The position numbers were made by a program, and so were the translations under genes. From assembly GCA_905235685.1 (NCBI GenBank), contig CAJOMO010000010.1:247-64246 (forward strand): a stretch of 64,000 nucleotides of DNA, read 5' to 3'. This document shows positions 2,683 through 18,850 of the stretch, piece after piece. The DNA is from an uncultured Selenomonadaceae bacterium (GTDB lineage Bacteria; Bacillota; Negativicutes; Selenomonadales; Selenomonadaceae). Position 1 is the first letter of the stretch, and the number at the start of each line of letters is the position of its first letter. The notes below the pieces were generated by a model. The model was not told the origin of the DNA. It saw nothing but the letters and a program-made list of their open reading frames with translations, and made no database searches.

Positions 2683-3926
2683 AAAAATTTTTAGCAACAA
2701 TGTTGATGTTAATTTTACCGGCAACGGCAAACGCAATGACTTTGAACGAGGCGGTACGAATCGCGCTTGAAAATAACCCGAGCCTGCAACGTACCGGACG
2801 CGCAATTGACCTTGCGGAAGAATCGCTGAAAGTTGCAAAGGCGAGCAAGGGGCTCTCAGTCGATTTAAGCGGCTCTGCAAGCGCGGCTAAGTCCGAAGGC
2901 TCATCGACGTCTGAAAGCCTGTCTACGCGGCTCAGGGGCGCTTTAACGCTGTATTCCGGCAAGAAATTGGAAAATCAAATTCAATCGGCGGAATTGGAAA
3001 TCGACGTTGCGAAATTGGATTTTTTACAGGCGCAGGACGATTTGATTTACCAGGTGGCAACGGCTTACATAAACGCGCTGGAAAATTTGGCAACAACCCA
3101 GGTTGATTTGAAAACTGAAGAAAATCTTGCCGAACACGAAAAAAATATCGCCGCCCTGTATGACGCCGGCTCGAAAGCGCGAATTGATTTACTGCGCGCG
3201 CAAGTCGAAACAAGCAACGCCCAACAAGATACCGCCAAATCTCACGCGGCTTATGAAGTCAGCTTAGCGAATTTGGCAACGCTCCTTTCGATTGACACGC
3301 GGACGAATCTTACAGTTGAGCCGGTGCAAACTTCGTTGGAATTGGGCGACGTAGAGAATTTTATGGTTATGGCGGCGGAAAATCGCGCAGATTTGCGGGC
3401 GGATTCTTTGAAAATCGACCAGGGCGAATTGGATATTGAAATGGCGCGCGCGGGCAATCGTCCGACGATTTCTGCGGAAGTTGGCGCGGGGCTCGGCGGG
3501 CAATCCAGCCGCTGGGATTTTCGATACGATCTTTCGGGCGGCGTCAGCGCGTCGTGGAATATTTTTGACGGCGGCATTACCAAATCTGAAATTTTGCAGG
3601 CGGAAATTGCGCTGGAACGGCTTTATCTTGACGTGCAAAATAATATCAATTCCGTCAATGAGGAAGTTGTTACGGCGTATAAAAATTTGAGAATCGCGTT
3701 AATGCGGCTGCGTACGACCGAGCGCGCTGTCCAATTGGCTGAAGAGGAACGTTACATTGCCACTGAAAAATATCGCGCAGGCGAAGGGATTTTGCTTGAC
3801 ATTCTCGACGCCGAAGTTTCATTGGCCACGGCGCGCAAAAATCACGTCAGCGCAACTTATGACGTGGCGCGTTACAGAATCGATTTAGCTCACGCGGTCG
3901 GCGATACCACGCTTGCGTTCGAATAA
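2679..3926 (+). CDS. TolC-family outer-membrane efflux protein
   Basis: 415 aa. Signal peptide MKKFLATMLMLILPATANA followed by the typical TolC start LNEAVRIALENNPSLQ. Two coiled-coil repeats. The ATG overlaps the sbcD stop (ATGA). Confidence 0.85.
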   Translation: MKKFLATMLMLILPATANAMTLNEAVRIALENNPSLQRTGRAIDLAEESLKVAKASKGLSVDLSGSASAAKSEGSSTSESLSTRLRGALTLYSGKKLENQIQSAELEIDVAKLDFLQAQDDLIYQVATAYINALENLATTQVDLKTEENLAEHEKNIAALYDAGSKARIDLLRAQVETSNAQQDTAKSHAAYEVSLANLATLLSIDTRTNLTVEPVQTSLELGDVENFMVMAAENRADLRADSLKIDQGELDIEMARAGNRPTISAEVGAGLGGQSSRWDFRYDLSGGVSASWNIFDGGITKSEILQAEIALERLYLDVQNNINSVNEEVVTAYKNLRIALMRLRTTERAVQLAEEERYIATEKYRAGEGILLDILDAEVSLATARKNHVSATYDVARYRIDLAHAVGDTTLAFE

Positions 3927-3938
3927 GGGGGATTTTTT

Positions 3939-5081
3939 TTGAAATGGAAAATTGGGCTGATTGCCGCGCTCATTATCGGCGCGCTGATTGGCTATAAATT
4001 TTACACTGACAAAATCGAAGAAGAGGCTTATCAAACATACGATACGGCGAAAGTCATTCGCATGGATTTGACAAAAACCGTTTCGGCGACGGGAACTGTG
4101 CAACCGCGCGAGAGTGTCGAAGTTTCCAGCAAAATCACTGCGCGAATCAAAGAGGTACTTGTCGAAGAAAATCAGCAGGTACGCGCCGGTCAAATCGTGG
4201 CGATTTTGGACGGCAAAGATTATGAGGCAAGGCGCGATCAAGCAAAATTCGCTTTGACAAATACTTTACAAAAATTGGAACGGACGCGGCGGCTTTACAA
4301 TATCGGCGCAAAATCCCGCGAGGAACTTGAAGACGCGCAATATAATTACGACCGCGCCAAATCCGAACTTGAACTTGCCGAAGACGATGTTAATCAAACA
4401 GTCATAACCGCGCCAATGGACGGAATTGTTGTGGGCGAGCCGCTTACCGCCGGAACTATGGCTGTTCAAGGCAACAGCAACCCGACGGTTATTTTGCGCA
4501 TTGCCGATTTGAGCGAAAAACTTGTCAAGGCGAAAGTGGACGAAACCGATATTGGCAGCGTCAGAGTTGGCGAAAATGCACTGTTTACCGTTGACGCTTA
4601 TCCGGACGAAAAATTTTTAGCCATTGTCAACAAAATTTCGCAGACCGATACAAATAATTCGTGGGACGTCAGCAGTTCGTCTTCGAGTTCGTCAAGTTCT
4701 TCAAATTCGGTTATCTATTATTACGTGACGTTTAATGCGCCCGACCCGAAAAATTTACTTTTACCGGCAATGACTGCGCGATTGGATATCACGGTTGGCA
4801 GAGTCGAAAATGCGCTGTGCGTGCCGATCGAGGCGATTAAAACCGACGGCAAAGGCTCATATGTAGAAAAAATTACCAAAGACGCGAAAAATCATGACGT
4901 GGCAGAAAAAGTTTACGTGACGATTGGCTTGTACGGCGAAGAATTTGTTGAAGTTACAACCAATGAGCTGGATGTTGGCGACGACGTTTCAATTACGTAT
5001 CAAGCGGCGGAGAAAAAATCTACCACGAATCAAAGCGGCGGCGGAAGACGCGGCGGTATGGGCGGACCTCCACCAATGTAA
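3939..5081 (+). CDS. HlyD/MacA-type membrane-fusion (periplasmic adaptor) protein
   Basis: 380 aa. TTG start 8 nt after GGGGGA. N-terminal TM helix, lipoyl-like hairpin motifs (VSSKITARIKEVLVEENQQVRAGQIVAILD ... ITAPMDGIVV) and a coiled coil. Unusual 11-Ser run and Gly-rich tail GGGRRGGMGGPPPM. Confidence 0.85.
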   Translation: MKWKIGLIAALIIGALIGYKFYTDKIEEEAYQTYDTAKVIRMDLTKTVSATGTVQPRESVEVSSKITARIKEVLVEENQQVRAGQIVAILDGKDYEARRDQAKFALTNTLQKLERTRRLYNIGAKSREELEDAQYNYDRAKSELELAEDDVNQTVITAPMDGIVVGEPLTAGTMAVQGNSNPTVILRIADLSEKLVKAKVDETDIGSVRVGENALFTVDAYPDEKFLAIVNKISQTDTNNSWDVSSSSSSSSSSSNSVIYYYVTFNAPDPKNLLLPAMTARLDITVGRVENALCVPIEAIKTDGKGSYVEKITKDAKNHDVAEKVYVTIGLYGEEFVEVTTNELDVGDDVSITYQAAEKKSTTNQSGGGRRGGMGGPPPM

Positions 5082-5149
5082 AATTAAAAGCCGCAAAATT
5101 CGTTTGAACTTCGCGACCAGGATTTAGTTTTCGTTAAAGATTATTTTTC
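5081..5149. repeat. 69-nt direct repeat, copy 1 (contains an imperfect hairpin)
   Basis: aaattaaaagccgcaaaattcgtttgaacttcgcgaccaggatttagttttcgttaaagattatttttc. Matches 5231-5299 with 4 mismatches by my count. Confidence 0.85.
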
Positions 5150-5230
5150 TGATAAATGCACGGCGAATAACAAAGCCGCTCGAATTCCGTTCAAAGTTAG
5201 GAAATACGCTGAAGAAATCAAGGAATCTCA

Positions 5231-5299
5231 AAATTAAAAGCCGCAAAATTCATTTGAACTTCGCGGTCAGGATGTAGTTTTCGTTAAAGATTATTTTTC
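5231..5299. repeat. 69-nt direct repeat, copy 2; overlaps the DJ-1 stop and probably acts as its terminator
   Basis: Same 69-mer as 5081-5149. On the minus strand the hairpin ccgcgaagttcaaatgaattttgcgg is followed by CTTTTAATTTT. Confidence 0.8.
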
Positions 5300-5854
5300 G
5301 GCTAAAAGTTTATCGTAGAGCATAGATTTTTTTATCGGCTCAGAATCTCCGCCGAGTACGTCAATGATTTTGTACGCGAAAGGCAAACAGGTGGCGGCGG
5401 CGCGGCTGGTGATTAAATTTCCGTCCTGCACAACAAGTTTATCTTCAACGTAATTTGCATCGCTGAACATTTCGGTAAAATTCGCGCCAGGGTACGAAGT
5501 CAAAGTTCTGCCCACGCTGACACCGGCGGCTTTTAAAACCATCGGCGCGGCGCAAATCGCGGCCACAAATTTATTCTTGCTCATAAAGTCGCGGACGATT
5601 TTCAAAACGCGTTCGTCCTTTGAAAGAGTCGTCGAACCGGGTTGACCGCCAGGCAGAATCACCATATCATAATCCGCCAAATCGTTATCGCCCAAAATTT
5701 TATCCGCCTTAACGGTGATTTTCCGGCTGCTGGTAACAAATTCATCTGCCAGCGAATAAGAATCCACTTCGATACCTGCGCGACGAATTATATCCATTGT
5801 GAAGAGCGCCTCGCCCTCCTCAAATCCATTCGCCAAAAAAATTGCAACTTTCAT
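5291..5854 (-). CDS. DJ-1/PfpI (ThiJ) family protein
   Basis: 187 aa. Type-1 glutamine-amidotransferase-like fold with the nucleophile-elbow motif AAICAAP. GGAGG SD upstream. Confidence 0.9.
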   Translation of the reverse strand: MKVAIFLANGFEEGEALFTMDIIRRAGIEVDSYSLADEFVTSSRKITVKADKILGDNDLADYDMVILPGGQPGSTTLSKDERVLKIVRDFMSKNKFVAAICAAPMVLKAAGVSVGRTLTSYPGANFTEMFSDANYVEDKLVVQDGNLITSRAAATCLPFAYKIIDVLGGDSEPIKKSMLYDKLLAEK

Positions 5855-5869
5855 AAATCAAACCTCCAA

Positions 5870-5910
5870 TAAAAAAATCCTGCGGCAATTATACTACAGG
5901 ATTTTTTTTG
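5870..5910 (-). terminator. Rho-independent terminator after the autotransporter gene
   Basis: Stem atcctg ... caggat flanked by an A7 run and a T8 run, located between the autotransporter stop (5954) and the DJ-1 SD. Confidence 0.6.
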
Positions 5911-5953
5911 TTGAAAGGGGCAAATCACAATCATTGAAAAAGATTCGGCTCAA

Positions 5954-7999
5954 TTAAAATTCGCTCTTGTATTTTGCCGCAAATGTCACGCCTTTTTGAT
6001 GACCAACCCAGCCAATTATTGAAGTGTCAAGCATTGTGTGAGAAGTATTTGAAGTATTTCTGCGCCAGCCTAATTCGATTAAGCCGCTGGTTCCCTTGAG
6101 GTCGGCTTTGTTGGTGGACATGCCCATATATTCGCCGCGAGTTTCGCCGGTAAATTCTTGAACCCAAGCCAGCCCCGAATACCAAATATTATCGCGGTAT
6201 TCACGAGTTAAGCGCGTGCCAATACGCATCCTGCCGCTACTTACCGAGCTGAATTTGTAATCTTCGCCGGTCGACAGCCGCGTTGTAAAGCCGTTTACTT
6301 TGTTCAAAGAATAAATTCCGTAAACATCAAGCTTGCTCGAACCGCCAATTGTATTTTTCCAACCGACGCGCACATGTCCGGCGTAACAAGGCATCGAAGC
6401 AGAATAATCGGCGTGCGTTGGGGTGCTGTGTACCAAGAAATTATCGCTCGAAAAACTCGTGTGGATTCGCCCTGCGCGAAAACTGCCTTCGTAATACATA
6501 CCCTTACTGTTGACAAGCCGCCCAATCATTCCCGCCGTGAAATAACGCGAATTTCCCGCGCCGTCAGTATTTTTCGCGCCGTCGCTCGTCTGATACGTCA
6601 AATGACTTTCGTAATAATCTTGCCCGTAATCGGTGATTGGTCCGAAAATAAAATAGCCGTGGCGATTATCCAATTTCCGAGCTACGCCAAAATCGAGTCC
6701 GCCGTTTTTGCTTTTAAGTTTTTGCCCGTCCGCGGTTTTAACTTTAAAGACACTGCCGCCCAATCCGACGAACGGGCTAAATTCTGTGGTCGGCATGCTG
6801 TTAACATCTTCGGGCGGCAACCACTCATAAATCCGTTCAGTGCCGCTGTCCAAAAGCCCTGCGCTGTCAATTGCGCCGCTGGTAAGAATATCTGTTTGCT
6901 TATTCAGTTCGTTTGAAACAAGCTCGCCGAGGGTTGCAATGTAAGAATTGCCATCTTCGCTCAAACCAAGATTAGCGATATTATAATCAACCGAGATACC
7001 TTTAGCGAGCGTTCCGTCATTGATTAAATCAGCGGAGCTGCCGGAATCGCCAAGCGTGATACCATTTCCATTGTGCAGCAAAATAATTTGTTGTCCGGCT
7101 GTAATATTTGCCGCACCGCTTGCCGCCAAATCCATATTTAAATTTGTTTGACTTAAATCTGTTTGTCCGTCAGTCAAGGTCAACGCCACATCGCCGTTAG
7201 CGGGATTAAAATCACTCGGCAGATAAAAATTTAAATTTGCAAAGCCGTGAATTTGTTTTGCCGTGATTCCGGAGGTGTAAATATTCAGCACATTGCCGGA
7301 AACAGAAATTCCCCTTCCGGCGTACAAAGTTGCATCACTCAAATCCGGTTTGCCATAAATATTGATAACGTTATTGGCGGCGGTGTTATTTTCAGCCCAG
7401 CCTCCGTGAATGCTGCCGGAAATTGTTCCGCCATTTATCGTTACAATATTATTTTCAGCTCTTCCCCAATTAGTTCGGGCGCCGGAAATGTTATCAGTGA
7501 TTGTTCCGGAATTAATTACCACTTGATTATTTTGAACCACAACACCGGAGCCAAGTTCACTGTTGCCAGCATATGACATCCCGCCAATCACGGTTTTTAT
7601 ATTACCGCCGTTAACCGTCACGACGTTATATTGAACGTTTCCGCCGTGAGAATCGCCGCCATAAATGATATTGATATCTCCGCCGTAAATGTTCACCCTA
7701 TTTCCTATGGAAATGCCCTTGTATGTGTAGCCGCCTCTTATGATATCGGTAATTGTACCTCCAAAAAAATTAACGGTATTATTCGAGGAGTCAGCTAAGG
7801 AAAATGAATTCCAAGGTCCGCCTCCGCCAAAAATCCGCTCAAAAGTTCCACTGTAACTTTTTGGAAAATCCTCATTGATTTGGTAAGAATCATTTGTTAC
7901 TATGACAGTATTTTGAGAGGAATTTTCGGGTACTAATTCTTCTGCGTTCGAGGTGTTTGTAATTCCGATTAAAACCACACTCAAGGAACAATGCGCCAA
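5954..7999 (-). CDS. Autotransporter (type Va) with beta-helical passenger and C-terminal beta-barrel
   Basis: 681 aa. Passenger full of degenerate N-x-V-x-I-x-GG rungs (VNIYGGDINIIYGGDSHGGNVQYNVVTVNGGNIKTVIGG...). C-terminal alternating-hydrophobic barrel ends ...VTFAAKYKSEF (terminal Phe). The annotated TTG start lacks the positively charged signal n-region; the in-frame upstream peptide LSKKKIGKIL is probably part of the protein (see finding). Confidence 0.8.
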   Translation of the reverse strand: MAHCSLSVVLIGITNTSNAEELVPENSSQNTVIVTNDSYQINEDFPKSYSGTFERIFGGGGPWNSFSLADSSNNTVNFFGGTITDIIRGGYTYKGISIGNRVNIYGGDINIIYGGDSHGGNVQYNVVTVNGGNIKTVIGGMSYAGNSELGSGVVVQNNQVVINSGTITDNISGARTNWGRAENNIVTINGGTISGSIHGGWAENNTAANNVINIYGKPDLSDATLYAGRGISVSGNVLNIYTSGITAKQIHGFANLNFYLPSDFNPANGDVALTLTDGQTDLSQTNLNMDLAASGAANITAGQQIILLHNGNGITLGDSGSSADLINDGTLAKGISVDYNIANLGLSEDGNSYIATLGELVSNELNKQTDILTSGAIDSAGLLDSGTERIYEWLPPEDVNSMPTTEFSPFVGLGGSVFKVKTADGQKLKSKNGGLDFGVARKLDNRHGYFIFGPITDYGQDYYESHLTYQTSDGAKNTDGAGNSRYFTAGMIGRLVNSKGMYYEGSFRAGRIHTSFSSDNFLVHSTPTHADYSASMPCYAGHVRVGWKNTIGGSSKLDVYGIYSLNKVNGFTTRLSTGEDYKFSSVSSGRMRIGTRLTREYRDNIWYSGLAWVQEFTGETRGEYMGMSTNKADLKGTSGLIELGWRRNTSNTSHTMLDTSIIGWVGHQKGVTFAAKYKSEF

Positions 8000-8050
8000 A
8001 ATTTTACCAATTTTTTTCTTGCTGAGATATACTGTAAAGCCTCCTAAAAT

Positions 8051-8956
8051 TTAACGGACAAAAACGACGGCGCAATTTTCCAGCATATGGGATTTTTCAT
8101 TCGCCAAAAGAATTTTATCCGCGTCTTCCACCGAAATAACCACGTTAACTTTGTTGGCGGAAGTCTCGGCGTCGTTGACTTTAACGGCTTTAACAATCAG
8201 CGGATTTGTGCCGGCGCGTTCCGTGGCAATTTCGTCGTCCACAGAATAGCTGTAGCTCACCATTCCGCTCTCGACAATTTTATCGGGGTCAAGATTTTCA
8301 ACGCCGTAAATCGCGCGCCCGTTCGTATCGAAAATCACGGGCGAAAAAGTTGGTTGAAGTCCCAAACCGGACGCGTCAACCACAACGCCGCTGTAATTTT
8401 CACTTTGGATTTGGCGAATTTCAGCGGGCTTGATTGTGGGTTTGTCGACAGTTTCAAAGGGCGTTCTATTTTCCGGCGAAATTTCCGGAACTATGGCGGA
8501 GGCAATGCTGCCCGTGCCGTAAATCGGGACGCGTATTTTTACGTAATAGCCGCCGTCGTCCGTTGGATATTCTTCGACAATTTGAGCGCCGCGGATTATT
8601 CCGGAAATTTTTCTGTGAACAACATCGCTCTCAATTTGAAGATCTCGCATTGTGGTATCGGAGTCGATTTGCATTCCTTGAACAGTGCCGAGTAAATTTC
8701 TCTGCGCCGCCATAATTGCCGCTTCACGCGCCATTGCCATTCCGCGCGGATCTTTCAAACTTATTCCGACGGCTGTAATGTCAGATTCAGAGCCTCTGTT
8801 CCAATTAACCTCGCCTTTGACTTTGACGTTAACATTGACTTCAGTGCCCGCCGCAATCGCCGGATTTTCAAAAATATTTCCGCCGAAAATAACCGCGCTG
8901 CCGACTGCCACCGCCGCAATGATTTTTTTGAATTTAAAACTTTCCATAATCTTCAC
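8051..8956 (-). CDS. Exported LPP20-like domain protein
   Basis: 301 aa. Signal peptide ...AAVAVGSAVIFGGNIFENPAIAA. LPP20-type motif ITAVGISL...AMAREAAIMAAQRNLLGTVQGMQIDSDT. The start could be GTG 8956 or ATG 8947. Confidence 0.55.
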   Translation of the reverse strand: MKIMESFKFKKIIAAVAVGSAVIFGGNIFENPAIAAGTEVNVNVKVKGEVNWNRGSESDITAVGISLKDPRGMAMAREAAIMAAQRNLLGTVQGMQIDSDTTMRDLQIESDVVHRKISGIIRGAQIVEEYPTDDGGYYVKIRVPIYGTGSIASAIVPEISPENRTPFETVDKPTIKPAEIRQIQSENYSGVVVDASGLGLQPTFSPVIFDTNGRAIYGVENLDPDKIVESGMVSYSYSVDDEIATERAGTNPLIVKAVKVNDAETSANKVNVVISVEDADKILLANEKSHMLENCAVVFVR

Positions 8957-8959
8957 CCG

Positions 8960-9757
8960 TTATCTGGCTCTGTACAGCGACATAGCCACATTCCATTGAT
9001 AGCCGCGGCTGGTTGTTTTTACTAAATCGTCATAAGAATAATTTTGCAGTCTTATCGAATTAGCGCCGTCAGCATTGGCGTCAAGCCACTGCACACCGTT
9101 ATCGGTGCGGCTAACGAATATAGCCGAATGAGCGCCGCCACTGCCGCGTTTGATTTGTATGAAATCGCCAGGCTGAGCTTGTGCAAATAAATTTCTAAAA
9201 GCCTCTCTGGCTTGGTCGCGATTATTTGTCTGCGAAACTTCCGCAACTTGATACACTCGCGCAGGAGTATTATTCAGCCGCCAATTGTAGTAATTTGAAG
9301 AGGTGCTGCCGCTACCGATGTAGCCGGTATCGTACAGGATATTGAAAATGTACGCGGCAAATTCTTTGCACTGAATGGCACTGGAATTGAGATATTTCTC
9401 CGCATTGCCACTGCGCGAATAGCCGTTAGTCCACGTTCTGCCATTCCAACGATTTATGAGCTCCTGCAATTTGGAGTTTCCATCATTAGAGCCGTTGAAA
9501 ATATCTTTGGAAACCCAACGACGTTTTGGACCGGAAGGCGTCGGATAGGTAACTTCAAAGGCGCGGCTGGTTTCCTGGTGAACAGTTACCAAATCGCCGC
9601 GGTCAACTCGTTCATTGCCCGTTCGATTTGTTAAAGCCTCGTCGCGATACGCAGGAACTGTATTGTCCGCGTAACGCTGATAATCCGCCATCGCTGTTAC
9701 GGCAAAAATCATAGTGAAGACGAACGCCATTGCGGCTAAAATTTTTCTCTTCAACAT
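8960..9757 (-). CDS. Secreted cell-wall hydrolase: SH3b-like N-domain + CHAP-like Cys/His amidase/peptidase domain
   Basis: 265 aa. The N-terminal ~90 aa are nearly identical to the next gene (signal peptide + SH3b-like GDLVTVHQETSRAFEVTYPTPSGPKRRWVSK). The C-domain has a Q-C nucleophile (AIQCKEFAAY) and GGAHSAIFV...DANADG, paralogous to the 10572-11180 product. Confidence 0.7.
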   Translation of the reverse strand: MLKRKILAAMAFVFTMIFAVTAMADYQRYADNTVPAYRDEALTNRTGNERVDRGDLVTVHQETSRAFEVTYPTPSGPKRRWVSKDIFNGSNDGNSKLQELINRWNGRTWTNGYSRSGNAEKYLNSSAIQCKEFAAYIFNILYDTGYIGSGSTSSNYYNWRLNNTPARVYQVAEVSQTNNRDQAREAFRNLFAQAQPGDFIQIKRGSGGAHSAIFVSRTDNGVQWLDANADGANSIRLQNYSYDDLVKTTSRGYQWNVAMSLYRAR

Positions 9758-9847
9758 TTGAAATCAATCCTCCTCGATTAATAAAAATCAAATTTGAAAA
9801 GGGTTTACGCCATAGGCATCACCTCCGAATTTAAATAAACGAAAGTC

Positions 9848-10555
9848 TTACAATATGCGTTCCAAATAAGGATACGGATTGCTGTTGTCAAGTGTTGGGT
9901 CGTTTACACTTTTGGCAGCAGCTCTGCGTTGTCCGTCACGTACCTCAAGATGAATGTGCGAAGAAGATGCGCCAACGCTACCTTGAGTACCAATTACAGT
10001 GCCTCTGCTGACGGTTTGCCCTTCCTGAACACGAATAGAGCCCATGTGCAAATACACTACAGTTTTGTTATTGGCGGAATCGTAAATTGCAACGGTGTTG
10101 ATTCTGTCGCCGCCGGCTTTGGTCACGACACCGGAAGCTATCGCGTGTATTTCAGCGCCGTTTGACAAAACCATATCGATACCCTCGTGGCGTCCAGGTG
10201 TATTTACATAGCTGTCAAAATCACAAGAAATTCTTCCGCCCGAACGTCCAAAAACAGCGTTGAGCAACTTTTGACGAACGTCATTTGAATCGTTGAAAAT
10301 GCTCTTAGAAACCCAACGACGTTTTGGACCGGAGGGCGTCGGATAGGTAACTTCATAGGCGCGGCTGGTTTCCTGGTGAACAGTTACCAAATCGCCGCGG
10401 TCAACTCGCTCATTGCCCGTGCGATTCGTCAAAGCCTCGTCGCGATACGCAGGAACTGTATTGTCCGCGTAACGCTGATAATCCGCCATTGCCGTTACCG
10501 CGAAAATCAGCGTGAAAACGAACGCCATTGCGGCTAAAATTTTTCTCTTCAACAT
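9848..10555 (-). CDS. Secreted M23 (LytM-type) metalloendopeptidase with SH3b-like N-domain
   Basis: 235 aa. HxxxD motif (GRHEGIDM) and HxH motif (SSHIHLEV). N-terminal module shared with 8960-9757. Confidence 0.85.
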   Translation of the reverse strand: MLKRKILAAMAFVFTLIFAVTAMADYQRYADNTVPAYRDEALTNRTGNERVDRGDLVTVHQETSRAYEVTYPTPSGPKRRWVSKSIFNDSNDVRQKLLNAVFGRSGGRISCDFDSYVNTPGRHEGIDMVLSNGAEIHAIASGVVTKAGGDRINTVAIYDSANNKTVVYLHMGSIRVQEGQTVSRGTVIGTQGSVGASSSHIHLEVRDGQRRAAAKSVNDPTLDNSNPYPYLERIL

Positions 10556-10571
10556 TTAAAAAACCCCCTCA

Positions 10572-11180
10572 TCAATTTGGATAATTAATCGGCTCGTATA
10601 CCGTGAAACCTTTGTTTCTGTCGGCTAATTGCGCCCAAGTATAATTATTTACTTGAATGGTATTTCTACCGTCCGCGTTTGCCTCGTAGAAAGTACAACC
10701 GCTGCCGTCATTTGCCGCGTAAAAGAAAATCGCCGTGTGAGGTTTTGGAGCATTACCTTTACTGTTTAATTTGTAACGCCGCCCCATTTGAACAATCGCG
10801 CCTGGCTTCACATTCCAGAATAAATTTTTTACAGCTTCAGCGTCATTCGAACTAAAATCAAAAAGCTGTCCAACAACACGTGAGCCACTATAATTCTCTA
10901 CGCCGTAATTGTTATTGGTGTAGCCGGAAATAGTGAGCCCGAAAAGCCGCTGATAAACTTTGTTGGCAAAACCACGACATTCACCACTACCGTTATAGCG
11001 CGTGCCTTCAATAAAGCCGTCAGTCTTCTTAGCAAGGTTTAGAATGTTGACAGTGTTTCTGATGCTCGCGCCCTCGGGAATGTGCATACTTACAGCTTCT
11101 GCTCGATTAATGCCGCTAAAAATAACGGCAACTGCCAATACAACCGTGAAAACAATAAATTTTTTGGCTTTGTCGAACAT
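10572..11180 (-). CDS. Secreted CHAP-like Cys/His cell-wall hydrolase
   Basis: 202 aa. Signal peptide ...SGINRAEA. GECRGFANKVYQ (Cys), KPHTAIFF (His), EANADGRNTIQVNNY. Aligns with the C-domain of 8960-9757. Confidence 0.65.
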   Translation of the reverse strand: MFDKAKKFIVFTVVLAVAVIFSGINRAEAVSMHIPEGASIRNTVNILNLAKKTDGFIEGTRYNGSGECRGFANKVYQRLFGLTISGYTNNNYGVENYSGSRVVGQLFDFSSNDAEAVKNLFWNVKPGAIVQMGRRYKLNSKGNAPKPHTAIFFYAANDGSGCTFYEANADGRNTIQVNNYTWAQLADRNKGFTVYEPINYPN

Positions 11181-11254
11181 TTTAAAATCCTCCCTTCAAA
11201 TATAAATCAAACTTCCTCAAAAAATACAATCATAGGCACCACCTCCTTAAAGAT

Positions 11255-11878
11255 TCATTTCTTCGTCGGCGGCTCATTGAAAAAATCAGCAACGATTTTA
11301 TCGACCGCGTCGCGTGAAGCCTTTGAAACAGAATTTCTAACGCAAATGGTAGGGACTTCTTTGCCGCCAATGCTCATCTTCAAACCCTTAGTATTTGCCT
11401 TGAGTTCAGAGGTTTTGGACACGCCTTCGCCCTGAGCGTAAATAATATCTTCGCCGGCTTTAACGTCCATTACTCGAACAATCATAGAACATTTTACAGA
11501 GCGAATATGCCCGCCGTTGCCCGCAATTTCAAAAGTCAAATCTTGACTGTTGACGCCGCTCATATTGCCGTAAATCAGATAATCGACTTTGATAATTTCG
11601 GCAATTCTGCGGGCGACGCTAAGCGGAATCAGCCCCGTTGTCAGTAATTTTTCTTCAGAAATTTCGTTGGCGTTTTCCCAATCGATTAAATCAAATCTTC
11701 CCGTGTCAAATAACGCCTTCATAAGAAATTCGGAGGCTATCAATCCAGCATTGCTAGGCTGCGAACCATAAACGCCCAAATCCATTACCGCCACGCGCGG
11801 CTTGTTATTTTCCGCCGCCTCACAAATATTCGCGAAAATCGCCAAACAAAAAATCATCGCGCAGATACGTTTCATCAT
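11255..11878 (-). CDS. Exported CsgG/LpoB-fold protein (paralog 3)
   Basis: 207 aa. KPRVAVMDLGVYG...LMKALFDTGRFDLIDWE...VDYLIYGNMSG...CSMIVRVMDVKAGEDI fits the CsgG-family pattern. Signal peptide without a canonical lipobox. Confidence 0.6.
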   Translation of the reverse strand: MMKRICAMIFCLAIFANICEAAENNKPRVAVMDLGVYGSQPSNAGLIASEFLMKALFDTGRFDLIDWENANEISEEKLLTTGLIPLSVARRIAEIIKVDYLIYGNMSGVNSQDLTFEIAGNGGHIRSVKCSMIVRVMDVKAGEDIIYAQGEGVSKTSELKANTKGLKMSIGGKEVPTICVRNSVSKASRDAVDKIVADFFNEPPTKK

Positions 11879-11887
11879 TTTCAGCCC

Positions 11888-12751
11888 TCATTTCAAAAAA
11901 AGTTTATTAGCGTCCATATCGGCAATCATTGCCTTGACAATTTTATCAGCCGCATCATTCAGCGCCTTTGTGTACAACGAATCGGACAGTTTTTCATGCC
12001 CAAATTTGATTGACGCAATTTCAAGGAATTTACTTTGCCCTTTGCCGACAACGCGCTTGCTCCAAACAACTTCGCCAGTCGACGCCTTAATCACGCGAAC
12101 GTCGCATTGAACACCGATACCTTTAATCGTCACGCTGACTTCGCCCATTTCACCAAGAAATTTCAACGCGCTCAAAGATTTTCCAAACAAATTTGACGCT
12201 TGGGAACTCGCCACTTTAGCAACATTACTTATTGCGCCGGAGACAAATTCTAAATCTTCGCTGAGCCAGCTGCCCGTGCCCAAATTTATAATTGTGCCTT
12301 GAATCAGATATTCGGCGTTGCCATGGATTTTGCCGATTTCCGCGGTAATTTCCGGCGTGATATATTGCCCGACCTGCGCGGTGACTATCGACTGCGCTTT
12401 TTTTTCGTTGAAACCGTCGCCTTCGAAAAATTTATTGTAATCGCCGCTGTTTATCGCCGAATCAAATCGCGTCAGCTCGTCAACTTTTTCGTCGTACAAC
12501 CTCGCCTCCAAATTCGCGTCAACAATGTCTTTGGTTGGAAATCTGAAACGATCTTTTGCGGCGTACATCCTAAGCGCAACCATCTCCGAGATTTTTCCCG
12601 CGGTATTCAGTTGGTCGTAGCGCGTGTCGTCGGTGAATTTTAAGAATACGCAGGTAGGCTTTTCTCGCGCAGTCGTCGTTGCAGGAATTAACCAAATCAC
12701 CGCGAAAGTCAAAATCAACAGCGCTTTAATGTTTCTTGCGTTTAGTTTCAT
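11888..12751 (-). CDS. Exported CsgG/LpoB-fold protein (paralog 2)
   Basis: Start moved to ATG 12751 (GGAGGG SD 8 nt upstream). KPTCVFLKFTDDT...AEYLIQGTIINLG...VQCDVRVIKASTGEVVWS. Overlaps the upstream gene's 3' end by 26 nt. Confidence 0.55.
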   Translation of the reverse strand: MKLNARNIKALLILTFAVIWLIPATTTAREKPTCVFLKFTDDTRYDQLNTAGKISEMVALRMYAAKDRFRFPTKDIVDANLEARLYDEKVDELTRFDSAINSGDYNKFFEGDGFNEKKAQSIVTAQVGQYITPEITAEIGKIHGNAEYLIQGTIINLGTGSWLSEDLEFVSGAISNVAKVASSQASNLFGKSLSALKFLGEMGEVSVTIKGIGVQCDVRVIKASTGEVVWSKRVVGKGQSKFLEIASIKFGHEKLSDSLYTKALNDAADKIVKAMIADMDANKLFLK

Positions 12752-13505
12752 CCTTAACACCCTCCGGCAATTTCAACAGAGATTTATCCGGCGTCGAAGA
12801 AAATTCCTGGATTTTGATAATGCATTTGCGCCCGTCGATTTTCCCGCTGCTGTCTTTGTGATAAGAGGCGGCGGCGATTTTCACCAAATTATTTCCGGAA
12901 AAATAATATCGCACAACTTCAGTCTCGCCGTTATCGTCCGAGCGATAATCTTCGTAAAAAAGCCCGTTGGCAAGTTTGCCCTGCGCGATAAATCGATAAC
13001 CGGAACTTTGGGCGCTCTTTTCGCTGTTGGGCAAAATGGCATTCAGCAAGCGGGACATATCGGCGTCGCCGTAACTTTTGCCCTCGATAATTTCAGCCAG
13101 ATAATTTTTCTCATTGGCAGCAACACGATTTTTCCGCGTACCAAAATATTCCCAGCGATTTTTTTTCTTGTACTTGCTAAAAACAAAATCCTCGCCGTCC
13201 TTCGAAAACCGACAAAGTTTAAAATCTTCGTCGCCAATTTCTTCGTAGCGAGTTTGCCCGTCAGCCACAACCACTCCGCTTTGAGGTTTGTAGGTCAAGT
13301 AATCATTTTCTGCGGAGGCTAAGCCGCTTTTGCCGTAAAGTTCAACTCTATCGCGGTTGGTAACGCGCGGCGGGGGCGTCAAATTTTCGTAGCGGATGGT
13401 ATAGGAATTTCGCAACAAGATTTCGCGGTAAAGGTCAATTTTCGCCGCCGAAACTTCCGCCGTAGATAAAAAAATCAGCAGGACGGCGATTAAAAATTTC
13501 TTCAT
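12726..13505 (-). CDS. Exported protein of unknown function (paralog of 13502-14317; LolA-like beta fold suspected)
   Basis: 259 aa. Signal peptide MKKFLIAVLLIFLSTAEVSA. Shares YREILLRNSYTIRYEN / YRRIFRSGNFYVEFRDK and a C-terminal ...I(K/Q)..S..P...(L/F)K(L/I).. pattern with its neighbour. ATGA overlap with the upstream gene. Confidence 0.6.
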   Translation of the reverse strand: MKKFLIAVLLIFLSTAEVSAAKIDLYREILLRNSYTIRYENLTPPPRVTNRDRVELYGKSGLASAENDYLTYKPQSGVVVADGQTRYEEIGDEDFKLCRFSKDGEDFVFSKYKKKNRWEYFGTRKNRVAANEKNYLAEIIEGKSYGDADMSRLLNAILPNSEKSAQSSGYRFIAQGKLANGLFYEDYRSDDNGETEVVRYYFSGNNLVKIAAASYHKDSSGKIDGRKCIIKIQEFSSTPDKSLLKLPEGVKDETKRKKH

Positions 13506-14317
13506 AACGTTTCAGCCTCCATTGTGCCGATTTTTACCGGTATCTCCAAAAGGTCGTTTATGTCGCCCATGCCTGCTGCGTAAAGCTCAGTATTTTTTTC
13601 GATTTTAAAAGTGTCCGCGGGAATTTCGGATTGGATTTTCTGCACCTTCAAAACGTTCAGCGGATAAGTTTTTCCGCCCCGCACAAGGTAACTTTCTGCG
13701 CGAAAAAGTTTGCCGTCCTTGTAAAACATTTCGTAAACCAAAGAGGCAGTGTCGCCGCCCGCCAAATTTTTTATCTCGCAGACGTAACGGTCGCAGTCAT
13801 AATCTCTGCCGTCAACTTTTTTCTTAGTGGATTCTTGAAAAACCGGCGCGTCAATCGCGGGCGTTTTCCAGCGAAAAGTATCTTCCCAATAGAAAACCGC
13901 CAATTCGTCCGGCAGCGCCAATCTCTGCGAAATTGTGTTCCAGCCGTCGCGCGGATTTAAATTTTCGTGGTTGATTTTATCGGCTTCGCAAACCAGCGCC
14001 TTTTTCTTTTCGAGGAATTGATAAAATTTTCCGTCGCGATAAAGGACTTCGGGATTTTTATCTTCGCCAACAAAAATTGCGCCCAAAGGATTAAACCAGG
14101 CGATTGAACCGCTCTCGGCGTCGTAGCGCATTCTTTCGACGCGCATGCCATTTTTACCGGCTAAAATCCGCGTACCCCATTTGTCGCGAAATTCAACATA
14201 AAAATTGCCGGAGCGGAAAATTCGCCGATATTCAGCAGCCGCCGCCTGTTCAGCACTAACCACATTAAAATTAAACATACCGAACAGCAACGCCAGCATT
14301 AAAATTTTCGCAGTCAT
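13502..14317 (-). CDS. Exported protein of unknown function (paralog of 12726-13505)
   Basis: 271 aa. Signal peptide MTAKILMLALLFGMFNFNVVSA. Beta-rich composition. See the paralog above. Confidence 0.6.
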   Translation of the reverse strand: MTAKILMLALLFGMFNFNVVSAEQAAAAEYRRIFRSGNFYVEFRDKWGTRILAGKNGMRVERMRYDAESGSIAWFNPLGAIFVGEDKNPEVLYRDGKFYQFLEKKKALVCEADKINHENLNPRDGWNTISQRLALPDELAVFYWEDTFRWKTPAIDAPVFQESTKKKVDGRDYDCDRYVCEIKNLAGGDTASLVYEMFYKDGKLFRAESYLVRGGKTYPLNVLKVQKIQSEIPADTFKIEKNTELYAAGMGDINDLLEIPVKIGTMEAETL

Positions 14318-14320
14318 AGC

Positions 14321-15022
14321 TTAAACCTTCCTCTGCTTGGTCGAGCCGTCGAGCAGCGCTTCAATTTCCTTGACGGCGTCAATCACGGCTTTGTATAGCG
14401 CATTTCGCACCTGAATTTGATTTACTTCACTACTGCCAATAGAAATTTTGTACATATCCGGCGTTTCATAAAATTTTGGGTTTATATCTAATTCGGCAGA
14501 GCCGCGCGAAGATTCGCCCCAGCCTTCAGCCATCAGCACCATTTCACCGGTTTCAATGTTGACAAAACGCACAGAAATAGTTGCGGTAACGGTTTGTTTA
14601 TTGACACCGGCAATTTTTGCCATATTCACCGGCGTGTTTTTGGAGCTGATATTTGTAACGTTGCCTTTAACGATGTATTGTACGTTTTTAATTTTGCCGA
14701 CCATAGCTCGCGCTTCGTCGCTCGTCAGACCGCTATTTTGAAGTTTGATTTCGTTTAACGCGTCTTGAAAATCTTCACGGTCAAACATTCCGAATCTGCC
14801 GGTGTGCCAAAGACGCAGTAACAAAAAATCTGATACAATCGCGGCGTCCCTTAACGCAACTTTATTACTGATTTCGTTTGGTATCGAAGATTTGTCTTTA
14901 AATGGCAAAACTGAAACATTCGGCGAGTGTTTCAAGCCCTCTTCGATTATCGGCTCTGCCAGCGCGGAACTTACTCCGATAAGAAAAAACGCCGCTAAAC
15001 TTAACAAAAAAATTTTTCGCAT
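14321..15022 (-). CDS. Exported CsgG/LpoB-fold protein (paralog 1)
   Basis: 233 aa. Signal peptide ...IGVSSALA. NVSVLPFKDKS...LLLRLWHTGRFGMFDREDFQDALNEIKLQNSG...VQYIVKGNVTNI...ISVRFVNIETGEMV. Confidence 0.6.
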   Translation of the reverse strand: MRKIFLLSLAAFFLIGVSSALAEPIIEEGLKHSPNVSVLPFKDKSSIPNEISNKVALRDAAIVSDFLLLRLWHTGRFGMFDREDFQDALNEIKLQNSGLTSDEARAMVGKIKNVQYIVKGNVTNISSKNTPVNMAKIAGVNKQTVTATISVRFVNIETGEMVLMAEGWGESSRGSAELDINPKFYETPDMYKISIGSSEVNQIQVRNALYKAVIDAVKEIEALLDGSTKQRKV

Positions 15023-15038
15023 TGTAATTTCGCCCCCG

Positions 15039-16112
15039 TCATTCGATGTTCAATTTGCAACTGTTAGCGCTCATATTTTCAATAGAAATTTTAAGTTTCG
15101 TACGAGCCTTCAGCGCCGTAAAAATTGCGTGCGGTTTCTGCGCAGAATCCACAGTCAGCACCGCCTCATTACCGGTTATTTCGCGAATGTAAACGCCGTT
15201 AACCATGCCGAGCTCCCGAATTTCTTCAATGCACCGGTTAAGATTTTCCTCGTTATTCGCGCTGATTGTAAAGGTAAGCCCTTGCACAGGTTGAGAGCTG
15301 AACTTTTTAAAAGTGTCGGCAAGTTTTTCGGCGGCTTGAGCGGAAACCTGCGCGACGGCGAATTGAGTACCTTGTTTGTCATCGCCGTGAAGAATATTTG
15401 TCATAACAGAAAAAGTACCGATCTTTTCGCCGGTGTCATTTTTCAGCACAGTTAAATTCAAATTCACTTGAACATTTTTCAAGCCGGTATCCACGTCGGC
15501 GGAATTTGGCTGCTTATTGCTGAAATCTGGCACGTGAACTTCTTCGGCAAGGCTGTTATATTTGCCAACGACAAGATAATCGGCGTTCGTGTTGGAAATT
15601 TTCCCACCGTCGCCAACTTCGGCTTCCACAACGTGATTGAAACCCAGGCTCAAAAGTTTGTCGGACAAAGCGCCTTCAGCAAAAACGTCGCGCACATTTG
15701 TTTGATTATCTGAAATGTTGAAAACCACCACGGCAATTCGAGGATCGTTCAGCTGCAAAATCATCGTCAGCTCGTCAATGAGTTTACCGTTCGGGCTGGT
15801 ATCGACGTCAATTCGCGCCTGCACTTTGTAGACGGAAGAATCAATCTTGCCTTCGCTCAAAATTTTTATTCCCTTGACGAAACCTTGAGATTTTTTGTAA
15901 ACTTCGTCCAACTGAATCTTCAAATCTTCCATGAGCGTCCTGGAGTCAATGTAAACCCCAACGACTTGTTCCACGGCAATTTGAGCGGCGTTGCGAATGG
16001 CTGAATCCCTGTCGAGCCCCATTCCAACAACCGTCACTTCCTGCGCTGAAACTTTTCCAAAAAATATTGTCAAAATCAGCGCCGTCATCAGAAAAAATTT
16101 TTTCAAGACCAT
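15039..16112 (-). CDS. Exported three-domain LPP20/FlgT-like protein
   Basis: 357 aa. Signal peptide ...IFFGKVSA. N-domain VTVVGMGLDRDSAIRNAAQIAVEQVVGVYIDS (LPP20/FlgT_N-like). Middle domain DPRIAVVVFNISDN (TolB-N/CsgG-like). Extra C-domain. First gene of the operon. Confidence 0.5.
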   Translation of the reverse strand: MVLKKFFLMTALILTIFFGKVSAQEVTVVGMGLDRDSAIRNAAQIAVEQVVGVYIDSRTLMEDLKIQLDEVYKKSQGFVKGIKILSEGKIDSSVYKVQARIDVDTSPNGKLIDELTMILQLNDPRIAVVVFNISDNQTNVRDVFAEGALSDKLLSLGFNHVVEAEVGDGGKISNTNADYLVVGKYNSLAEEVHVPDFSNKQPNSADVDTGLKNVQVNLNLTVLKNDTGEKIGTFSVMTNILHGDDKQGTQFAVAQVSAQAAEKLADTFKKFSSQPVQGLTFTISANNEENLNRCIEEIRELGMVNGVYIREITGNEAVLTVDSAQKPHAIFTALKARTKLKISIENMSANSCKLNIE

Positions 16113-16191
16113 TTCACCCCCTTAAACAACTTAACTACGGATAAAGCTACCCTCCTTTCACTAAAACTAAAGTTAAGAAACTTTGTGGCGA

Positions 16192-16220
16192 ATTATACCG
16201 CGCTTTTACTGATTTTACAA
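16192..16220 (-). promoter_or_regulatory. Sigma-70-type promoter of the envelope operon
   Basis: Minus strand reads TTGTAA - 17 nt - TATAAT, about 75 nt upstream of ATG 16112. Confidence 0.55.
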
Positions 16221-16311: not shown

Positions 16312-16983
16312 ATGAAGGCTGAAACCAAAGACAGGCTCACCGCCGAAATTGCAACCACAGATTTTTTTGACAAACTGCCCGCCGAAATTCGCGGCTGTGC
16401 TTTGACGAAAATTTTTGCGGCGGACGGCGATAAATTTATTTATTTCACCTGCGCGAACGAAACGGCTCACCGCGCTTTGATTGTTTATTTCCACGAAGAA
16501 ACCGCCGAATATAAAATTCGCGTAAAAATCGGCTTGACGGAATTTTGCTTGACAAATTTTTTCACGCGAAACTTTCAGCGCTTCATTGAAAATCTCGACG
16601 CGAAACTTGACGCCACCATTCAAAAACTCAACGCGCCCGTCGATACCAAAACCGATTTGTTTATCGGCAGTCAAAATCTCGGCGATTGGACTTTCGCGAA
16701 AAATCTGCCCAAAAATCTTGACGGTTTCGAACTTTTCATCGCGCCCGATAAGCCCGTGAAAATCACCAACGGCTCGTACATTATTTTGAATTACAGCGAT
16801 TTTGCGAATCAGAGCGACTTCACGATTTTTTACAATTTTTACACCGGCGGTTACAGCGGCGAATCGCGCATTAAACTCGTGCCGTACGTAAGCTACACTT
16901 TTGACGCGAAAAATTTAGCCGAATTGGAAATTAAATTGCAAAAAAATTTATCCGGCGAAATTCAACGTATCAGAAATTTTTAA
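16312..16983 (+). CDS. Hypothetical cytoplasmic protein
   Basis: 223-aa ORF with no recognisable motifs. Preceded by an extended -10 (TGTTATAAT, 16275-16283). Confidence 0.6.
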   Translation: MKAETKDRLTAEIATTDFFDKLPAEIRGCALTKIFAADGDKFIYFTCANETAHRALIVYFHEETAEYKIRVKIGLTEFCLTNFFTRNFQRFIENLDAKLDATIQKLNAPVDTKTDLFIGSQNLGDWTFAKNLPKNLDGFELFIAPDKPVKITNGSYIILNYSDFANQSDFTIFYNFYTGGYSGESRIKLVPYVSYTFDAKNLAELEIKLQKNLSGEIQRIRNF

Positions 16984-17056: not shown

Positions 17057-18850
17057 TTGGAAAAATCTCAGTCTTCAATGAAGACGCAATTTATGCTAAT
17101 GATGGTAATTGCGTCGCTGGTTACAATGTTTGTCGTGGGTACGGTCTTCACTTTCGATATCATAAGTAACAATGAACAGGAAATTAAAGCGTTTCGCGAA
17201 ATGCTGACAAATGACGTGCAACGCGAATTGAAAAATCAAACTAAAACCGCGATAAGCGCCATTCAAGAAGTTTACAGGCATCAACAATCCGGACTTTTGA
17301 CAGAAGCAGCCGCAAGAAAAGCCGCCGCTGATTTGGTGCGTGATATGCGCTACGAAGGCGACGGCGGTTATTTCTGGATTGATACCTACGAAGGCATTAA
17401 CGTAGTTTTATTGGGCAGAGACAGCGAAGGCAAATCTCGTATTGATTTAACAGATCCGACCGGTAAACAATTTATTCGCGAAATGATTGAAAACGGCAGG
17501 AAACCCGACGGCGGCTTTACCGATTTAATGTTCGCTAAGCCGAATGAAACTGAACTTTTGCCGAAAATAAATTATACTGCCGCATTTGAGCCGTATCAGT
17601 GGGTTATCGGTACGGGCGTTTGGGTTGATTATATCGATAATCGCGTTGCCGAAATGAAGGCGCGCTCAGACGAAAATTTGAAGAGCATCGTTATGAAAAT
17701 GACGATTGTCAGCGTGATTTTGGAAGCCGTGATTATTTTTGCCGCGAATGCCTTTGCAAATTATCTGATTGTGCCGATTCGCAATTTGACTTCAGCTTTG
17801 GGAATTTTGGGGCAAGGCGATTTTCGCATGACTAATCAACCGGAAGAAAACGACGTTACCCGCACGGACGAATTAGGCGTTATGGCACGTGCCGTTTCGC
17901 AGCTGCGCGAAAATGTCCGAAGTATGATTAACAAAGTCATAACGTCCGCCGAACAGGTTGCCGCGGCGTCGGAGCAATTGACAGCCAGCGCCGACCAATC
18001 GACGACTGCGATTAATCAAGTTGCCGAATCGATTGTAAATGTTGCGGGCGCGTGCACCGAGCAATTCACCGAAGTTGAAAACGCCACCGCTAAAGCCGGC
18101 GAACTGAAAACTCATATGAGCGTTTTTGCTGATACTTTGCACGATTCTTCGCGCGAAATTGGCGAAACCAGCACCGCCGCCGAAAAGGGCGTTTCTGCCG
18201 TCAAAAATGCGATTGACCAAATGTCGACGATTGAGACTTCCGTTAATTCTTCCGCTGAAGTTATCGCGCAGCTCGGCGAAGAATCCGAAAAAATCGGCAA
18301 GATTGTTGACGCTATCGTTGCCATTGCCGATCAGACGAATCTTTTGGCGCTCAATGCGGCGATTGAGGCGGCAAGAGCCGGTGAACACGGGCGCGGCTTT
18401 GCTGTCGTTGCTGATGAAGTTCGTAAATTAGCAGAGCAATCTCAAAGTTCCGCTAAAGAAATTTCCACGCTGATTGGCTCTATTCAAGAAAAATCTCAAG
18501 ATGCGGTTAAGTCCATGCAGCAGGGCGTATCTAATGTTAAAACCGGCGCGGACGCTGTGGACGAGGCGGGCAAAACTTTTGGCGAGATTATGAAGAAAGT
18601 TACCGCCGTTTCAACCAGTTCAGATAAAATGGACGGGCTGGTTGTCGAATTGGCGAAGAGTACCGATGTCATAATCCATTCGGTTGACCGCATTAACGAA
18701 AAGAGCCGCGAAGTTGCGAAAGAATCTGAAACGGTTTCGGCGTCGGGCGAAGAACAATCCGCCACCATGCACGAAATTGCCGACGCGAGCCGTTCACTTG
18801 CCGTTATGGCTCAGCAAATGCAGGACGTCATTTCGAAATTCAAAATCTAA
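17057..18850 (+). CDS. Methyl-accepting chemotaxis protein (sCache_2 sensor + HAMP + MA domain)
   Basis: 597 aa. TTG start after GGGGGAG. Two TM segments flank a Cache-like region ([11 protein letters not shown]...[14 protein letters not shown]). Conserved MCP signalling hairpin [40 protein letters not shown]. Confidence 0.9.

Follow-up and report, generated by a model that had tools for sequence, protein, structure and literature searches.

A conserved cluster of exported CsgG-, FlgT- and LPP20-like proteins in the Negativicutes: a candidate non-flagellar system of the outer envelope

The stretch of DNA considered here (the window) comprises 64,000 nucleotides of contig CAJOMO010000010.1 from an uncultured Selenomonadaceae bacterium. 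On its reverse strand, at positions 5954-16112, stand eleven consecutive and closely packed open reading frames (ORFs), g1 to g11 in that order (Table 1), which raise the question of what a set of proteins with the folds of ring formers might be doing in a place where no flagellar gene is found. A first-pass annotation, made from the letters of the sequence, had described eleven same-strand genes whose products all carry a type I signal peptide, none of them lipidated and none an ATPase, an inner-membrane protein or a cytoplasmic protein, and had suggested a periplasmic or outer-membrane scaffold, or a secretion or anchoring apparatus, of a diderm Firmicute. This description has largely stood. 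The ORF list agrees with the genes and with the junction sizes given for them, apart from one overlap that spans 26-35 nt depending on the start chosen for g5. All 11 products have one N-terminal hydrophobic segment followed by an AxA-like site, with no later window resembling a transmembrane segment, and their translations contain no canonical lipobox, the nearest approach being ANIC in g6. Neither Pfam nor scans for transmembrane windows and signal sequences detect an ATPase, an inner-membrane protein or a cytoplasmic protein encoded in the operon. The closest homologs occur in metagenome-assembled genomes (MAGs) of rumen Selenomonadaceae, and homolog taxonomy places the host among the Negativicutes. 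The suggested apparatus is likewise supported by its folds, its non-flagellar context and the co-conservation of its genes. The explanation that we prefer, and hold tentatively, is that the cluster encodes an outer-envelope system that is conserved among Negativicutes, non-flagellar and Sec-dependent, and in which the core is fixed and the clients are exchangeable; the main new result, as read from sequence, is the pattern of putative clients that share a module and are encoded beside that fixed core.

Conserved core and exchangeable neighbours

A scan for homologs, with one genome taken per species and all ORFs mapped against the 11 proteins, yielded 78 loci. The order g1-g2-g3-g4-g5-g6 is kept in more than 20 of these, down to about 30% identity, in hosts from four Negativicutes lineages, namely the Selenomonadaceae (including S. 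ruminantium S137), Schwartzia, Anaerovibrio and Phascolarctobacterium, so that the conservation of the neighbourhood and of its genes together, for which the first-pass annotation had asked, is borne out. Within this run g3-g4-g5-g6 behave as a fixed sub-module. Most loci that extend far enough continue with g10, and the autotransporter gene is present in at least 10 Selenomonadaceae loci; short variants consisting of g1 and two CsgG-like genes also exist. Two g1-type loci, both full or one full and one short, can occur in a single MAG (L007 with L008, L011 with L034, L014 with L040, L026 with L045 and L032 with L033, the L numbers denoting individual loci), which indicates that the system has been duplicated and has diversified within genomes. 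Genes similar to g1 were also met on contigs binned as Escherichia coli (L037) and as a Woesearchaeota archaeon (L055); the former resembles the Phascolarctobacterium loci, with 33% identity and the same extent, and both contigs are probably mis-binned.

The genes found between g6 and g10 differ from one locus to the next, and among close relatives the core is stable. Two related SH3-like modules (hhalign, 89%) mark this variable block: N1, which is found in g8 and g9, and N2, with the motif IVTDKLPLLTYA... Hidden Markov models (HMMs) of both, run on all ORFs of 83 loci with 10-kb flanks and of the window, recovered about 40 proteins, all encoded in the variable block and none in the flanks or elsewhere in the window. 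The module almost always lies directly behind the signal peptide, and its C-terminal partner may be an M23 peptidase, a papain-like or C39-like domain, a ricin-B lectin or a type I dockerin. A variable-block protein of L012 (Selenomonadaceae) that has neither module (963 aa; 10391-13282) contains ten RTX calcium-binding repeats, and its vicinity showed no genes for type I secretion. Ricin, dockerin and RTX modules are typical of extracellular proteins.

In the window the block consists of g7, g8 and g9. The first-pass call of g8 as an M23 hydrolase is sound, its N1 module being followed by an M23 domain well above the Pfam threshold (E 6.7e-19; 68.3 bits against 28.7) in which both zinc motifs, HxxxD (RHEGID) and HxH (SHIHLE), can be read intact from the translation. 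In g9 the N1 module precedes a papain-like domain, to which g7 is paralogous (BLASTP E 6e-11), and the 5' ends of g8 and g9 are copies of one direct repeat that encodes signal peptide and module together. The papain-like domain had been called CHAP-like. Its catalytic-type residues hold up, as C28, H108 and N128 are invariant in an alignment of eight family members, but the family call is weak: matches to NlpC/P60 (0.007-0.008; g9 0.008) and to CHAP (0.03-0.09; g9 0.086) are sub-threshold, and the domain has neither an above-threshold Pfam match nor a sequence match in the PDB. Since a stable core is accompanied by exchangeable exoproteins with a common N-terminal module, we regard the hydrolases as probable clients and not simply as enzymes that open the wall during assembly; the dedicated wall-crossing role to which the first-pass annotation had pointed suits them less well.

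The setting of the cluster is not flagellar. When 33 flagellar and chemotaxis proteins of E. coli were compared by tblastn with the 83 loci and the window, flagellar genes appeared in L034 only (one of about 46 Negativicutes loci) and not in the window, and the Pfam-annotated neighbourhoods of three further loci contain none. No CsgE, CsgF, CsgA, CsgB or amyloid-repeat substrate family is recognised by Pfam in the eleven genes of the operon or in their flanks. The statement that no flagellar or curli substrate gene is adjacent thus holds, and the orthologous clusters lie outside flagellar loci, the sole exception being a divergent paralog in L034 that is described below.

Folds of the exported proteins

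The first-pass annotation had proposed a FlgT-like three-domain layout for g1, a second LPP20-like protein in g10, three CsgG-fold paralogs and a pair of mutually paralogous LolA-like proteins, and each of these assignments is upheld, if by different kinds of evidence. An AlphaFold2 (AF2) model of g1 (pLDDT 73) divides into an N domain (~23-104, LPP20/FlgP-like), an M domain (~126-271, CsgG/TolB-N-like) and a C domain (~277-356). Its best Foldseek matches are FlgT chains, 8z5n_0 (2e-10) and 3w1e (1e-9), over about 400 columns, followed by CsgG, HpaA, PelC and LptE; the TM-score against FlgT is only 0.28, which is consistent with a different orientation of the domains. By sequence, g1 itself has no Pfam match at E <= 0.1 and does not reach the thresholds of FlgT_N, FlgT_M or FlgT_C. 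Precomputed FlgT_N (PF16548) matches are found on 9 g1 homologs among the matches listed, and a homolog from the Myxococcota reaches 32.9 bits against a cut-off of 28.8. A search of the PDB with the g1 profile returned Campylobacter jejuni 9hmf_C alone, weakly (0.002), and since it missed FlgT, the link to FlgT rests on the fold and on the Pfam matches of the homologs.

BLASTP relates the N domain of g1 to the LPP20 domain of g10 (E 5e-12), and it is this N domain that resembles 9hmf_C. In g10 a FlgP/LPP20-like domain (~57-145) is joined to a C-terminal domain (~170-300). The former passes Pfam LPP20 (PF02169) marginally (E 9.1e-6; 26.5 bits against a cut-off of 25.9), and the g10 family profile matches 9hmf_C at 6e-19 and Vibrio FlgP (8z5n_2) at 5.1e-10. 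We take 9hmf_C, deposited merely as 'Lipoprotein, putative', to be FlgP. The C-terminal half matches residues 137-260 of Treponema pallidum Tp0624 (5jir_B; family profile, E 4.7e-15).

All three CsgG-family proteins exceed the gathering cut-off of Pfam CsgG (PF03783), which is 20.8 bits. The clearest is g2 (66.6 bits, E 2.5e-18, profile positions 7-202 of 210), whose family profile also matches E. coli CsgG structures at 2.6e-8; g5 reaches 23.1 bits (E 5.2e-5) through its C-terminal part only; and g6, at 32.1 bits (E 8.8e-8), matches NCBIfam LpoB as well (E 2.5e-4) and has no sequence match in the PDB. Weak Pfam matches to FlgT_M and FlgO occur among the CsgG/LpoB-like proteins. When g2 orthologs are aligned with E. 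coli CsgG by MAFFT, both hairpin sites (TM1 and TM2) are occupied by inserts that are similar in length to those of CsgG or longer. In the same alignment g5 has a helical insert together with a large insert at the position of the TM1 hairpin, and g6 is short.

The absence of lipid anchors extends beyond the window. Motifs resembling a lipobox were found in 4 of 114 CsgG-like, 4 of 46 g1-like and none of 19 g10-like proteins of Negativicutes, so that non-lipidation of these families, judged by motif, is lineage-wide. The near-absence of such motifs fits the absence of LolA and LolB from Negativicutes, for which no Lol pathway has been reported (PMC5007114).

No sequence match to g3 or g4 was obtained in Pfam, NCBIfam or the PDB, and BLASTP detects no similarity between the two. 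Their paralogy is visible at the level of family profiles (hhalign probability 93%, E 2.8e-7, 222 columns). The AF2 model of g3 (pLDDT 87, pTM 0.80) has a single Foldseek match at E <= 0.001, the LolA of Porphyromonas gingivalis (8cgm_A; 7.1e-5; TM-scores 0.35 and 0.45), and the next two matches are chains of EPDR1, which is LolA-like. In every related locus g4 follows g3. The g3 family is lineage-restricted, a search of 1.84 billion proteins having matched only 193 representatives, and the g3/g4 family is met essentially only in the context of this cluster.

The annotation of g11 as an autotransporter is upheld by homology but not by any autotransporter HMM. The protein has a repeat-rich passenger, a C-terminal beta-domain and the final residues ...KSEF, and tblastn aligns it over 82-88% of its length with autotransporters annotated by PGAP, on plasmid pSRC1 of S. 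ruminantium (5e-49, 88% of length) and in N. vulgaris (1e-42); no similar cluster lies beside the plasmid gene. Neither g11 nor any of six orthologs matches a Pfam or NCBIfam autotransporter family (PF03797, TIGR01414), even with Pfam taken to E <= 10, and comparison of g11 with the PDB, as a single sequence or as a profile, gave nothing usable; the sole HMM match among the orthologs is to a Campylobacter 'LOFI repeat'. The Phascolarctobacterium cluster carries a clear PF03797 autotransporter (2e-25). Orthologs of g11 have a signal peptide, and in the closest relative (L006) the gene starts with GTG, 7 nt behind the ribosome-binding site AGGGGG. The window has GTA at that place (8032-8030). 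The canonical start that comes next is TTG at 7999, and a protein begun there would lack the charged n-region of its signal peptide; translation of g11 may therefore be poor in this organism, or a sequencing error may account for the altered base.

Candidate functions and their weight

Under the reading that we prefer, the core would consist of g1, g2, g5, g6, g3, g4 and g10, made as soluble exported proteins. To judge from their homologs, these may form oligomeric rings that lie beneath the outer membrane or within it. With no Lol pathway in Negativicutes the proteins have no lipid anchors, and attachment would depend on contacts between proteins or on beta-hairpins of the CsgG type, as g2 appears to retain. 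The putative clients are encoded by the variable block, in the window by g7-g9, and are Sec-exported, wall-active enzymes with a cluster-specific SH3-like N-terminal module, which the core might either export across the outer membrane or position there, in both cases presumably without ATP. Curli channels and autotransporters work without ATP. Calcium-dependent folding of dockerin and RTX modules outside the cell could, speculatively, drive such a passage, and the terminal autotransporter would be a co-expressed surface component.

Several observations weigh against this picture. Loci that are otherwise complete (L003, L007, L012 and L043) lack g10 and the autotransporter gene. The hydrolases of the window carry no dockerin, ricin or RTX module, and the SH3-like module might do no more than attach them to the peptidoglycan of the cell that makes them. 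The 71-aa N1 module, used as a query, retrieved only four short fragments, and the distribution of N1 and N2 is accordingly known from the loci and the window. Finally, the TM1-equivalent insert is shortened in the g2 of the window, and the hairpin regions of g5 and g6 are strongly divergent from those of CsgG, so that a true membrane channel is not established.

A bolder form of the same idea strikes us as unlikely. It would make the cluster a new class of ATP-independent export or display system in diderm Firmicutes, in which CsgG-type channels framed by rings of the FlgT and FlgP type, with LolA-fold periplasmic carriers and recognition of the SH3-like module, deliver exchangeable wall-degrading enzymes, lectins and calcium-binding (dockerin or RTX) proteins to the surface as cargo, and would make the related modules of other phyla the stock from which the flagellar rings of Vibrio and Campylobacter were drawn.

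The most serious rival, although a doubtful one, is a scaffold in the periplasm whose ring-forming core would hold the hydrolases to the sacculus of the cell itself and so serve wall remodelling, for example in curvature, in the splitting of the septum or in setting the distance from outer membrane to peptidoglycan, with nothing secreted. An SH3b module combined with an M23 or NlpC/P60-type enzyme is a classic set of autolysin parts, the M23 motifs of g8 are intact, the enzymes of the window have no module of the extracellular type, and LpoB, to whose fold those of g2 and g6 are related, is a regulator of peptidoglycan synthases. Most hosts of the cluster are curved rods, and Mitsuokella, a straight rod, has a short variant only. 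A scaffold of this kind would, however, leave the co-conserved autotransporter unexplained, the ricin, dockerin and RTX modules of variable blocks elsewhere would be unusual in a periplasm, and the set of hydrolases turns over rapidly between close relatives that share a stable core.

It is improbable that the cluster encodes a flagellum-associated outer disk, or an analogue of the H-ring, from a site apart from the main flagellar operons. The homology of g1 and g10 with FlgT and FlgP invites the idea, as does a chemoreceptor gene near the operon at 17057-18850. A further argument is found in L034, where a 506-aa exported protein (8321-9841) combines a C-type-lectin-like domain with a g1-like three-domain part, 36% identical to g1, and is encoded between a fliO-like ORF (7680-8312) and fliP (9869-10612), near fliM/fliN (3576-5778) and cheY (7441-7803). 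This protein suggests that the flagella of Negativicutes may own a FlgT-type ring. Yet the same MAG (Selenomonadales) also holds a separate full cluster (L011), and because the L034 gene lies in a flagellar operon and the other loci do not, the FlgT-like family has a flagellar member and the cluster studied here is non-flagellar. Up to two clusters occur in a genome, modules with similar parts in Alteromonas, Halanaerobacter and Elusimicrobia are non-flagellar, and a full cluster is present in Phascolarctobacterium, of which P. faecium has been described as non-motile (PMC12137122).

No better placed is the notion that there is no single machine, and that several LpoB/CsgG-like regulators, autolysins and an adhesin, all unrelated exported envelope proteins, have come together by chance or for the sake of shared regulation. 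A physical interaction of the products is hypothetical, g10 and g11 are absent from some loci, and the expression signals are weak. The promoter proposed at 16192-16220 is present as a sequence, about 80 nt upstream of g1, but sites of this quality are barely enriched in the window (30 found against 21.4 +/- 4.2 in shuffles) and the candidate therefore counts for little. The terminator proposed at 5870-5910 corresponds to a hairpin that folds better than shuffled sequence, in the 99-nt spacer 3' of g11, but a strict terminator scan does not report it. Against a mere grouping stand the order of g1-g6, strictly kept to about 30% identity and across families, the near confinement of g3 and g4 to this context, and the recurrence of a FlgT-like protein with LPP20 and CsgG in other phyla. 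The junctions point the same way, as overlaps of 4 and 26-35 nt and gaps of 16, 3, 9, 16 and 3 nt suggest translational coupling; the longer ones measure 74, 90 and up to 51 nt.

Least probable of all is a pathway in which g3 and g4 shuttle a lipid, a lipopeptide or an acylated protein to CsgG-like partners in the outer membrane and so partly replace Lol, an idea to which the high-confidence LolA-like model of g3, the fixed g3-g4-g5-g6 sub-module and the lack of LolA and LolB in Negativicutes lend some appeal, but against which stand the modest structural match, an operon with no ABC transporter or acyltransferase, and a g3 family so small and so restricted, to part of the Selenomonadales and the Acidaminococcales, that it is not a general substitute for Lol.

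The GC content is flat at 45-47% across the window and so gives no compositional sign of recent import; an origin as a horizontal island was rejected on this ground. Divergent from the operon lies a gene for a cytoplasmic protein of 223 aa, which adjoins g1 in the closest relatives (L001, L002, L007 and L048) and whose tie to the operon is uncertain; an XRE/HTH_3 regulator takes its place in the more distant L003, L004 and L005. Further downstream on the reverse strand, between an HlyD-family gene and a DJ-1/PfpI gene, two near-identical terminator-like hairpins, CCGCGAAGTTCAAA(C/T)GAATTTTGCGG, stand about 150 nt apart at 5089-5118 and 5241-5266 and form a small repeated element.

Table 1. Features of the cluster and its borders, in window coordinates
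Feature	Position	Strand	Size or description
g1	15039-16112	-	357 aa
g2	14321-15022	-	233 aa
g3	13502-14317	-	271 aa
g4	12726-13505	-	259 aa
g5	11888-12760	-	290 aa
g6	11255-11878	-	207 aa
g7	10572-11180	-	202 aa; first gene of the variable block
g8	9848-10555	-	235 aa
g9	8960-9757	-	265 aa
g10	8051-8956	-	301 aa
g11	5954-7999 (to 8032 counting the ancestral start)	-	681 aa from 7999
Direct repeat copy	9483-9779		297 nt; 90% identical to 10281-10577; 5' end of g9
Direct repeat copy	10281-10577		297 nt; 5' end of g8; encodes signal peptide and N1 module
Promoter candidate	16192-16220	-	sigma-70-like, TTGTAA-17-TATAAT; 10/12 matches
Terminator-like hairpin	~5870-5908	-	A8-stem-T7 (U7 in RNA); RNA fold of 5855-5960, z = -3.4 against shuffles; could act bidirectionally
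Divergent gene	16312-16983	+	223 aa; no Pfam match; no signal peptide

Resemblance to known systems

To our knowledge, diderm Firmicutes have neither Lol nor Braun's lipoprotein and are without most of the Bam lipoproteins, and studies of their secretion routes are few. The cluster, as a conserved, multi-copy and lipoprotein-free set of ring-former folds, offers concrete genes for the study of their outer membrane. All of its folds are known from other systems, each of which it resembles in part. CsgG forms a 9-mer, and Campylobacter has a basal disk of FlgP. In Vibrio, FlgT, FlgP and FlgO build concentric rings associated with the outer membrane, FlgT as a 26-mer and FlgP and FlgO as 58-mers (PMC13626733; bioRxiv 10.64898/2025.12.02.691832), and FlgP and FlgO are lipid-anchored through an N-terminal cysteine, Cys18 in the FlgP of V. 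cholerae (bioRxiv 10.64898/2025.12.02.691832). The cluster shares with the Vibrio H-ring and the Campylobacter disk the N/M/C layout of g1, the FlgP-like N-domain of g10 and a CsgG/LpoB-like fold group. It differs from the H-ring in having no flagellar neighbours, FlgH, FlgI or MotX/MotY in 45 of 46 loci, in its non-lipidated proteins, in its presence in a non-motile genus, and in the added genes for LolA-fold proteins, hydrolases and an autotransporter.

With the curli (type VIII) pathway the cluster has in common three CsgG-family proteins, of which the g2 family aligns through the TM1 region, and a dependence on Sec with no ATPase or inner-membrane part. Unlike that pathway it has no lipobox, g5 and g6 diverge at the hairpins, and a channel is hypothetical. 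The best structural match of the g3 model is LolA, and g4 is its remote paralog, but the two are not members of the LolA or LolB families by sequence, are larger (about 250 aa when mature), always paired and always beside CsgG-like genes, and belong to a lineage without the Lol pathway and to an operon without an ABC transporter. The C-terminal domain of g10 is homologous to domain 2 of Tp0624, which has been described as a previously uncharacterised fold with function unassigned (PMC5104382); there it is joined to an OmpA-like domain and in g10 to a FlgP-like one. Type Va autotransporters resemble g11 in near-full-length homology, in the signal peptide of its orthologs, in the repeat-rich passenger and in the C-terminal F. 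Set against this, g11 and its orthologs miss the HMMs, and the ancestral start is mutated in the window.

The closest parallels in gene content come from other phyla. In Alteromonas alba (L067, 9848-19801) a g1-like, FlgT-like gene is accompanied by genes for a TPR-CsgG protein, a 934-aa fn3 protein, an LPP20 protein, an SLT transglycosylase, a g10-like protein (LPP20 with domain 2) and a TPR protein; this cluster is conserved in the Alteromonadaceae (L067; L059-L077), and a GGDEF-EAL gene lies upstream. Halanaerobacter (Halanaerobiales; L054) combines DUF5723, g1-like and g10-like genes with a TolB-like propeller lipoprotein and two CsgG-domain proteins. In the Elusimicrobia (L075) LPP20, g1-like and CsgG proteins all have lipoboxes; the Myxococcota have a pair of g10-like and g1-like genes only, and such pairs also occur in the Armatimonadia. 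A tblastn search of these loci found no flagellar genes in any of the modules. They differ from the cluster of Negativicutes in their low identity to it (24-33%), in their partners (TPR, fn3, TolB-like propeller, PEGA/FecR) and in having neither the LolA-fold pair nor the autotransporter. The searchable literature on CsgG, LPP20 and FlgT in Negativicutes gives no account of such a cluster or of its counterparts in other phyla, and the combination of folds, its conservation in Negativicutes and the architecture of the putative clients are without description there. If the non-flagellar reading is true, building blocks of the FlgT, FlgP and CsgG type have a wider life outside the flagellum than the rings of Vibrio and Campylobacter would suggest, which would bear on the origin of the extra disks in high-torque flagellar motors.

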